A stretch of 2,469 nt of DNA from Escherichia coli (lineage in GTDB: Bacteria > Pseudomonadota > Gammaproteobacteria > Enterobacterales > Enterobacteriaceae): assembly GCF_003334255.1 (NCBI RefSeq), contig NZ_QOWU01000133.1; one strand, given 5' to 3'. Of this stretch, positions 1,833-2,135 are shown in pieces. Under the pieces are notes generated by a model. It worked only from the letters and a program-made list of their open reading frames with translations. It did no database searches and was not told where the DNA came from. Numbering within the stretch: position 1 is the first letter of the stretch; each line of letters starts with the position of its first letter. A program made the translations under genes and the position numbers.

Positions 1833-2111
1833 GAGAAAATGATAATGATTATCAGTTGCAACAAAATCCAGTTTCTTCCACCATCGCACCGGACGAGCGA
1901 CCATGAGGGGACAACGCCACGCTCCGTTAACGCGGTAAACCCCGGTGTGTATCGTTTTTGATTATCCCCGCACACTCGCGCAGAGGAGTCTCCCGGTAGG
2001 GCTGCGGTCTCTGTTCATGTGGGAATACGGCGACGATACTGCGCAAAGACATGCTTCAGAAATACATAAGTAAACTAAAATATTGTATCTCTGTGGCTAA
2101 TTACGTAAATT

Positions 2112-2135
2112 GGTGGCTTGGCCCCTTTAGCCACC
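2112..2135. terminator. Candidate hairpin downstream of Rz (7-bp stem GGTGGCT/AGCCACC, 10-nt loop); weak terminator-like structure
   Basis: Inverted repeat GGTGGCT (2112..2118) and AGCCACC (2129..2135) seen directly. On the Rz-sense transcript it is followed by AAUUUAC, a poor U-tract, so intrinsic-terminator function is uncertain. Confidence 0.25.

Follow-up and report, generated by a model that had tools for sequence, protein, structure and literature searches.

The window, by which we mean the whole 2,469-nucleotide stretch of Escherichia coli DNA analysed here, is from a lambda-like E. coli phage, with the late operon on the minus strand and read from right to left. Its whole length is 99.1% identical to the reverse strand of Escherichia phage PhiR5_1. 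The annotation of that phage places the 5′ part of the gene for terminase large subunit A at 1-1094 (minus strand), running off the left end of the window, and together with the list of open reading frames (ORFs) it places the gene for terminase small subunit Nu1 at 1066-1614 (minus strand) and the 3′ part of Rz, encoding the i-spanin or endopeptidase, at 2170-2469 (minus strand), continuing past the right end. The Rz stop codon TAA is the reverse complement of 2170-2172. Embedded in Rz, the ORF list has a minus-strand ORF of 61 aa (2232-2417) for an Rz1-like lipoprotein, with a lipobox-like VVSAC and a proline-rich tail; the PhiR5_1 record has no annotation for it. From its position inside Rz and from what is known of Rz/Rz1 in lambda we take this ORF to be a putative Rz1 (o-spanin) gene.

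Between Nu1 and Rz, the reverse complement of 1789-1800 reads GGGCGGCGACCT and is followed by CGCGGGTTTTCGCTATTTATGAAAA; we take this to be the cohesive-end sequence cosN (minus strand) from its likeness to the lambda cohesive end, with CGCGGGTTTTCGCTATTTATGAAAA matching the lambda left end. A perfect 7-nt inverted repeat (1631-1637 and 1667-1673) lies between cosN and the start of Nu1; in lambda the R sites of cosB sit in the corresponding spacer. On the other side of cosN, a cluster of inverted repeats read in the sequence at 2093-2135 lies 35-77 nt downstream of the Rz stop and ~300 bp upstream of cosN.

The repeat cluster at 2093-2135

The original prediction described three repeats here, and all are present, with two corrections: the arms of the outer repeat are 8 nt rather than 7 nt long, and the string as quoted lacked its final C (2135). 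The outer inverted repeat is GTGGCTAA/TTAGCCAC at 2093-2100 and 2127-2134, the inner is GGTGGCT/AGCCACC at 2112-2118 and 2129-2135, and the perfect 8-bp palindrome TTACGTAA lies at 2101-2108. Because GTGGCT occurs as a direct repeat (2093-2098 and 2113-2118), one right arm serves both stems, which are therefore mutually exclusive alternatives and not nested.

Dinucleotide shuffles gave closely similar numbers of such repeats for the whole window: perfect 7-nt inverted repeats with loops of 3-30 nt number 5 (4.9 ± 2.7 in shuffles), perfect 8-nt inverted repeats 1 (1.3 expected) and 8-bp palindromes 9 (9.7 expected), and a cluster of three repeats inside 43 nt was seen in 21% of shuffles. Folding of the 43-mer, proposed earlier as a check, gave unremarkable energies with z about -1.5 to -1.7, namely -13.0 kcal/mol on the minus strand (z -1.67, 16 of 200 shuffles equal or better) and -13.8 kcal/mol on the plus strand (z -1.48, 15 of 200).

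Conservation of the stems in related phages, the other check proposed, was assessed in an alignment of eight distinct variants of what we call type A below (the window and seven others). The named stems are not kept: paired cells amount to 42.9% for the inner and 45.3% for the outer, and both are complete in one variant of the eight, the window's own row. Neither stem has compensatory changes in this alignment, and slid controls score alike. The left arm GGTGGCT is replaced in relatives by GAACTCT, GGATTCT or GACACCT, while the palindrome becomes TTGCGTAA, TGGCGTAA, TGGCCTAA or TAGCGTAG, being degenerate in every relative outside the window's lineage. Half of the columns at 2093-2126 are variable (17/34 in the type A alignment), and the right arm, 2127-2135, is the sole part of the cluster that falls inside the conserved core described below. 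Weak folding energy and lack of conservation, two of the observations that the original prediction had itself named as counting against it, are thus what we find for 2093-2126. On our best reading the cluster consists of chance-level, lineage-specific repeats and is not a functional unit.

A promoter-like sequence, TTTACG-16-TACAAT with 9 of 12 matches, overlaps the palindrome on the minus strand (2109-2082) and aims at cos and Nu1. Two such sites were found, about as many as chance would give (1.0 ± 1.0), and E. coli ZJ3920 does not retain the -10 element of this one.

A cassette site and a conserved core next to Rz

Three-way alignment gave the boundaries of a non-coding filler cassette of 127 bp (2046-2172), lying between a junction that ends in CGACGATACTGCGCA (2030-2045) and the Rz stop. 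The site is recurrent, in that the junction, ending in CGACGATACnGCGCA in the same position, is followed before the Rz stop by one of three states. In the empty state, found in Stx1 phage 132418, it is joined almost directly to the Rz stop; in the bor state, found in Lambda_ev066 and K-12 DLP12, it is followed by bor, a gene read in the opposite direction to the late operon, and the region upstream of bor; and in the filler state, found in the window and ZJ3920, it is followed by 127-135 bp of non-coding filler that includes the core. The cassette is dispensable, since Stx1 phage 132418 lacks it entirely. The ORF list contains no conserved ORF within 2046-2172, and a 41-aa minus-strand ORF that reaches into the cassette from the cos side (1927-2052) has lost its start codon in Stx1 phage 132418.

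Morons are reportedly cassettes of promoter, gene and terminator inserted between the genes of lambdoid phages. The filler resembles lambda bor and other morons in occupying the exact site of bor in Lambda_ev066 and K-12 DLP12, and in ev066, too, a hairpin directly next to the Rz stop forms the end of bor. Unlike them, the window cassette has no gene or detectable promoter and would correspond at most to the terminator end of such a unit. It was rejected as a moron in its own right, there being no plus-strand promoter-like site at 1600-2469 and no conserved ORF at 2046-2172. In ZJ3920-type prophages, the commonest subtype with a core adjacent to Rz, the core has a converging plus-strand DUF1398 gene upstream of it, an arrangement found in about 20 IMG/VR loci; the window is without upstream antisense accessory genes of this type.

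The ~180 nt on the cos side of the junction (1867-2045, extending to 2048) are non-coding and conserved across lambdoid prophages, at 75-93% for 1867-2048 in K-12 DLP12 (ybcV-borD), three prophages of E2348/69, Stx phages and ZJ3920. This segment contains an invariant block, ACCCGGTGTGnATCGTTTTTGATTAT, that forms a plus-strand hairpin followed by T5 at about 1915-1959 of the window; its terminator scores (explained below) are -3.8 in the ZJ3920 locus (L003, 523-551) and -22.6 at 1915-1954 of the window. In other prophages the hairpin comes right after antisense DUF1398 or DUF3950 genes, and it may therefore be their terminator. Stx1 phage 132418 keeps the same cos-proximal segment without the cassette.

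A BLAST query of 2040-2185 against 5,426 complete E. coli genomes found matches to a much shorter element, a core of ~56 bp running from TGGC to CTTTAGCCACCGGCAAATCTTCAGCGGATTATCCTTGGCCGGTTTTTA (2117-2172, plus strand), in 704 genomes (~13%). The full segment is present in only 16 of the 704, always at 99% identity or more. Other matches reach the right part only (2098-2185 or 2117-2185, about 90%), and a further group of genomes matches just 2116-2171 at 82-85% identity. The same tiers of coverage recur in 12 phage records with core matches. Scanning IMG/VR with an 18-nt core pattern (2130-2147) found the core in 120 loci, giving 121 copies with one added phage locus; a contig scan with GGCNAATCTTCANNGGATT was too loose and gave chance matches in unrelated phyla. 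The core is absent from the DLP12 and Qin prophages of K-12, so K-12 transcript maps are uninformative for it, and from three lambdoid prophages of EPEC E2348/69.

The 121 copies fall into two subtypes. In type A, which includes the window and ZJ3920, the core adjoins the Rz stop; in type B, represented by phage cdtI, STEC409 and ETEC-2264, it lies ~150 bp from cosN. At least three unrelated classes of left flank and at least three of right flank occur among the copies. Homology between the window and type B is confined to 2116-2171, where it stops exactly after a run of T residues; the flanks are unalignable, and left of the core no significant similarity was detected between the window and type B (p = 0.2-0.5). 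Wherever the core was found, it is part of the late operon, with the lysis genes to one side and cos to the other. In phage vB_EcoS-689R5 it sits between two late-sense genes, and many type B copies have only cos and a terminase gene upstream, with no plus-strand gene. In the type A alignment, variation at 2155-2172, the half of the core hairpin that was not fixed by the search pattern, is limited to 1 of 18 columns; the neighboring Rz coding sequence varies in 25 of 127.

Two further features were observed at type B loci. One is a late-sense ORF, 61-63 codons long, that occurs on the minus strand at about 560-730 of locus L004 and in 88 other type B loci, starting at CATGG in the core after AAGAGGG and crossing cosN. 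Its dN/dS of 0.5-0.6 is below the value of about 1.1 for the other reading frames, and its sole matches are two families of unknown function, PHROG 17397 and 35601. The window does not have this ORF, the ATG being AAG there, and the ORF is probably spurious. Directly after the T-run of the core, L004 also carries a 135-bp insert flanked by a 14-bp direct repeat, CCGGTTTTTTATTT (748-761 and 883-896), with a plus-strand ORF of 39 codons (MRNIAFTSRAAIVISMLHQCMGGIGG...) and a second hairpin with T6 at its end (score -4.8).

The hairpin of the core and its polarity

Within the core, a conserved plus-strand hairpin (2133-2167) is built on the 6-bp base stem ACCGGC (2133-2138)/GCCGGT (2162-2167), made up of G-C and A-T pairs only, with a possible apical stem AATC (2140-2143)/GATT (2151-2154). 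Straight after it comes a T5 run (2167-2171, plus strand; T6 in type B) that overlaps the Rz stop codon of the other strand. The idea of a termination-type hairpin just after Rz, part of the original prediction, thus finds some support, although in another hairpin, one that lies mostly outside 2093-2135 and has its T-run on the opposite strand.

Folding energies on the plus strand are -10.3 kcal/mol for the window hairpin and -12.9 kcal/mol for that of type B, and those on the minus strand are -9.5 to -11.3 kcal/mol. The hairpin is paired in 98.8% of cells among the eight variants, an invariance that is partly a matter of ascertainment because 2130-2147 served as search pattern. Neither RNAalifold nor counting of pairs detected covariation in the hairpin, because the stem pairs never vary, and structure is therefore not separable here from plain conservation of sequence. 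The sequences of the loop and internal loop are conserved as strongly as the stem. T5-T6 follows the stem on the plus strand in every variant, while on the minus strand the core stem is followed by GGCTAAAG or GGCAAAAG.

Candidate terminators were scored by the method of d'Aubenton-Carafa with ViennaRNA energies, in which values >0 predict a terminator. On the plus strand, type B cores score +15.5, +7.8 and +12.7; the window core (-22.2 and -15.9) and other Rz-adjacent, type A copies (-13.8) are below threshold. On the minus strand, the type B core of L004 scores -32.7 and all candidates at the core site score about -33 or lower. The three minus-strand stems of the window at this site, with the tails AAUUUACGUAAUU, AGAGAUACAAUAUUU and GGCUAAAGGGGCCAA, score -57.6, -85.3 and -87.1. 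The core is the top plus-strand terminator candidate of the window from Nu1 to Rz, and in L004 it is the only candidate with a positive score on either strand. A consensus terminator scan of both strands at 1600-2469 found none; being strict, such a scan misses the core hairpin because its loop exceeds 8 nt.

The plus-strand core has both a stable G+C-rich hairpin and an adjacent T tract. It is like the intrinsic terminators at convergent gene junctions of E. coli and its phages in its G+C-rich base stem followed by T5-T6, in lying where minus-strand Rz ends, with a plus-strand gene converging on it in the commonest relatives, and in the type B copies that exceed the d'Aubenton-Carafa threshold. 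It differs from them in that the hairpin is long (about 35 nt), with a large internal loop and a conserved loop sequence, and in that the window copy is below threshold, with T5 only, in a run shared with the Rz stop.

Possible roles of the core

We tentatively favor, at a probability of roughly 45%, the reading of the core as a strand-selective intrinsic terminator or insulator directed against antisense transcription. RNA polymerase that enters from cos and heads for the lysis genes would copy first the hairpin and then the U-tract, and its release there would keep it from running antisense through Rz, R and S. The source of such transcription may be opposite-facing morons expressed in the lysogen, for example the DUF1398, DUF3950 or bor-type genes of relatives. 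Late transcription would meet an A-run, the hairpin and then purine-rich sequence and go on to cos, Nu1 and A, since on the late strand no U-tract follows the hairpin. Consistent with this reading are the chance level of the repeats at 2093-2135, the wide occurrence of the core among unrelated flanks, the lower variability of its hairpin compared with its surroundings, the plus-strand polarity indicated by the placement of the T-run and by the type B scores, and the converging DUF1398 gene. In L004, the second hairpin with T6 has the same orientation ~130 nt beyond the core.

Against the terminator reading stand the sub-threshold scores of the window and other Rz-adjacent copies, the lack of a plus-strand promoter-like site at 1600-2469, the many type B copies with no plus-strand gene upstream, the position between late-sense genes in vB_EcoS-689R5, the lack of covariation in the stem, and the absence of the cassette from Stx1 phage 132418. 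Conservation of the loop also counts against a plain terminator, which needs no conserved loop. In ZJ3920 the core is not the first terminator after the DUF1398 gene, because the better hairpin with T5 (-3.8, L003 523-551) intervenes. As the window module is weak (T5 and a score below threshold) and upstream antisense genes are absent, this copy is probably a relic or a back-up insulator.

Two other accounts of the core need weighing against a terminator. It may have no function of its own and be a patch of shared ancestry at a junction of mosaic modules, a relic of sequence downstream of Rz or a recombination 'linker', with the 2093-2135 repeats as noise in decaying filler. Short conserved 'boundary' or 'linker' sequences are said to occur at lambdoid module junctions, and the core is like them as a short homologous patch between unrelated modules with indels at its edge; in having a hairpin and T-run and varying less than adjacent coding sequence it is unlike them. 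The site is indeed a cassette junction that can be empty or hold bor or the filler (at least three states), the core loses its homology abruptly at both edges, the L004 insert with its direct repeats lies at the T-run, the window copy is below the terminator threshold and the cassette is dispensable. That account is nonetheless a doubtful one, given that proportionally fewer columns vary in the hairpin half free of ascertainment than in Rz (1/18 against 25/127), that the core retains 82-85% identity between subtypes with unalignable flanks, and that type B copies score as good terminators. The hairpin could instead act on the late minus-strand mRNA, shielding the lysis message from 3′ exonucleases or marking a processing site between lysis and packaging messages. 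Its minus-strand stability (-9.5 to -11.3 kcal/mol) is close to that of the plus strand, it begins 2-3 nt past the Rz stop, the loop sequence is conserved too, and all contexts of the core, including the one between two late-sense genes in vB_EcoS-689R5, are late-operon positions that separate the lysis genes from cos. We regard such a role as unlikely: it leaves unexplained the conserved T-run at the edge of type B homology, where no gene ends, covariation is missing, and otherwise similar Stx phages do without the cassette.

The remaining proposals are less probable still. Lambdoid prophages of pathogenic E. coli encode Hfq-dependent small RNAs, among them PasA-D, AgvB and AsxR (PMC8550237; PMC4104026; bioRxiv 10.64898/2026.05.13.724894). 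Like the core, they are carried by lambdoid prophages, and they finish in a stem-loop with a U-tract after it. The core was rejected as a member of the Pas group, since both positions and sequence differ: PasA, PasC and PasD are located by Q, holin and lysozyme genes and PasB among structural genes, and the published PasB probe sequence is not in the core. Filler and core could together make another plus-strand RNA of ~60-90 nt that ends at the hairpin and U-run, with the U-rich CUUU(U/A) ahead of it completing an Hfq-type 3′ module. The order of small hairpin, U-rich stretch, terminator hairpin and U5-6 does recall, by general knowledge, the 3′ ends of small RNAs; the cassette is too small for a protein, and ZJ3920 has a plus-strand promoter-like sequence (TTGACT-16-TAGCAT) ~80 nt upstream of the T-run. 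That sequence is missing from the window through a 6-nt deletion, altered in other variants and absent from type B; Rfam 15 at E<=1 gave no match for the window, L003 400-900 or L004 300-1000, the three E2348/69 prophages lack the core, and the searchable literature yielded one irrelevant match only to the core sequence. A small RNA made of filler and core is thus very improbable in our estimation. The broader proposal that the core is a dedicated functional module in about 13% of E. coli genomes, whether as the Hfq-type 3′ end of an unannotated antisense prophage small RNA or as a strand-selective insulator shielding the lysis genes in lysogens, seems quite unlikely. For the palindrome and inverted repeats, binding of a dimeric protein to the DNA (a regulator, IHF or an accessory factor of terminase, for instance) might be imagined from the perfect 8-bp palindrome TTACGTAA and a position ~300 bp from cosN. 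Known cos subsites in lambda lie within about 200 bp of cosN; the cluster, at 293-346 bp, is beyond them and was rejected as a cosQ, cosN or cosB element. With the palindrome degenerate in relatives and 8-bp palindromes at chance frequency (9 against 9.7 expected), and with the segment missing from Stx1 phage 132418, a protein-binding role has no support from conservation and appears highly improbable. The role first proposed for the 2093-2135 stems, as a weak attenuator of the late transcript before cos, is the least credible. In its favor, the minus-strand GGUGGCU/AGCCACC stem (-10.4 kcal/mol) is followed by AAUUUACGUAAUU, which has a few U residues. Scores of -57.6 and -85.3, the negative consensus scan and the want of any U-tract speak against the attenuator. 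The stems are at chance frequency and conserved in none of the other variants (1/8), and the full filler is present in 16 of the 704 genomes with a core. Late transcription in lambda is antiterminated by Q and must cross cos into Nu1 and A, so an attenuator at this point would be ignored or harmful.

In practice these results matter mainly as a negative one: annotation of the inverted repeats at 2093-2135 as a regulatory element is not warranted. Annotation of lambdoid prophages can make use of the cassette site that lies between the junction and the Rz stop. The core looks like an ordinary terminator-like hairpin, resembling the end of an opposite-facing moron unit, and at best it would be one further directional terminator that keeps opposite-facing accessory transcription out of the phage lysis cassette.
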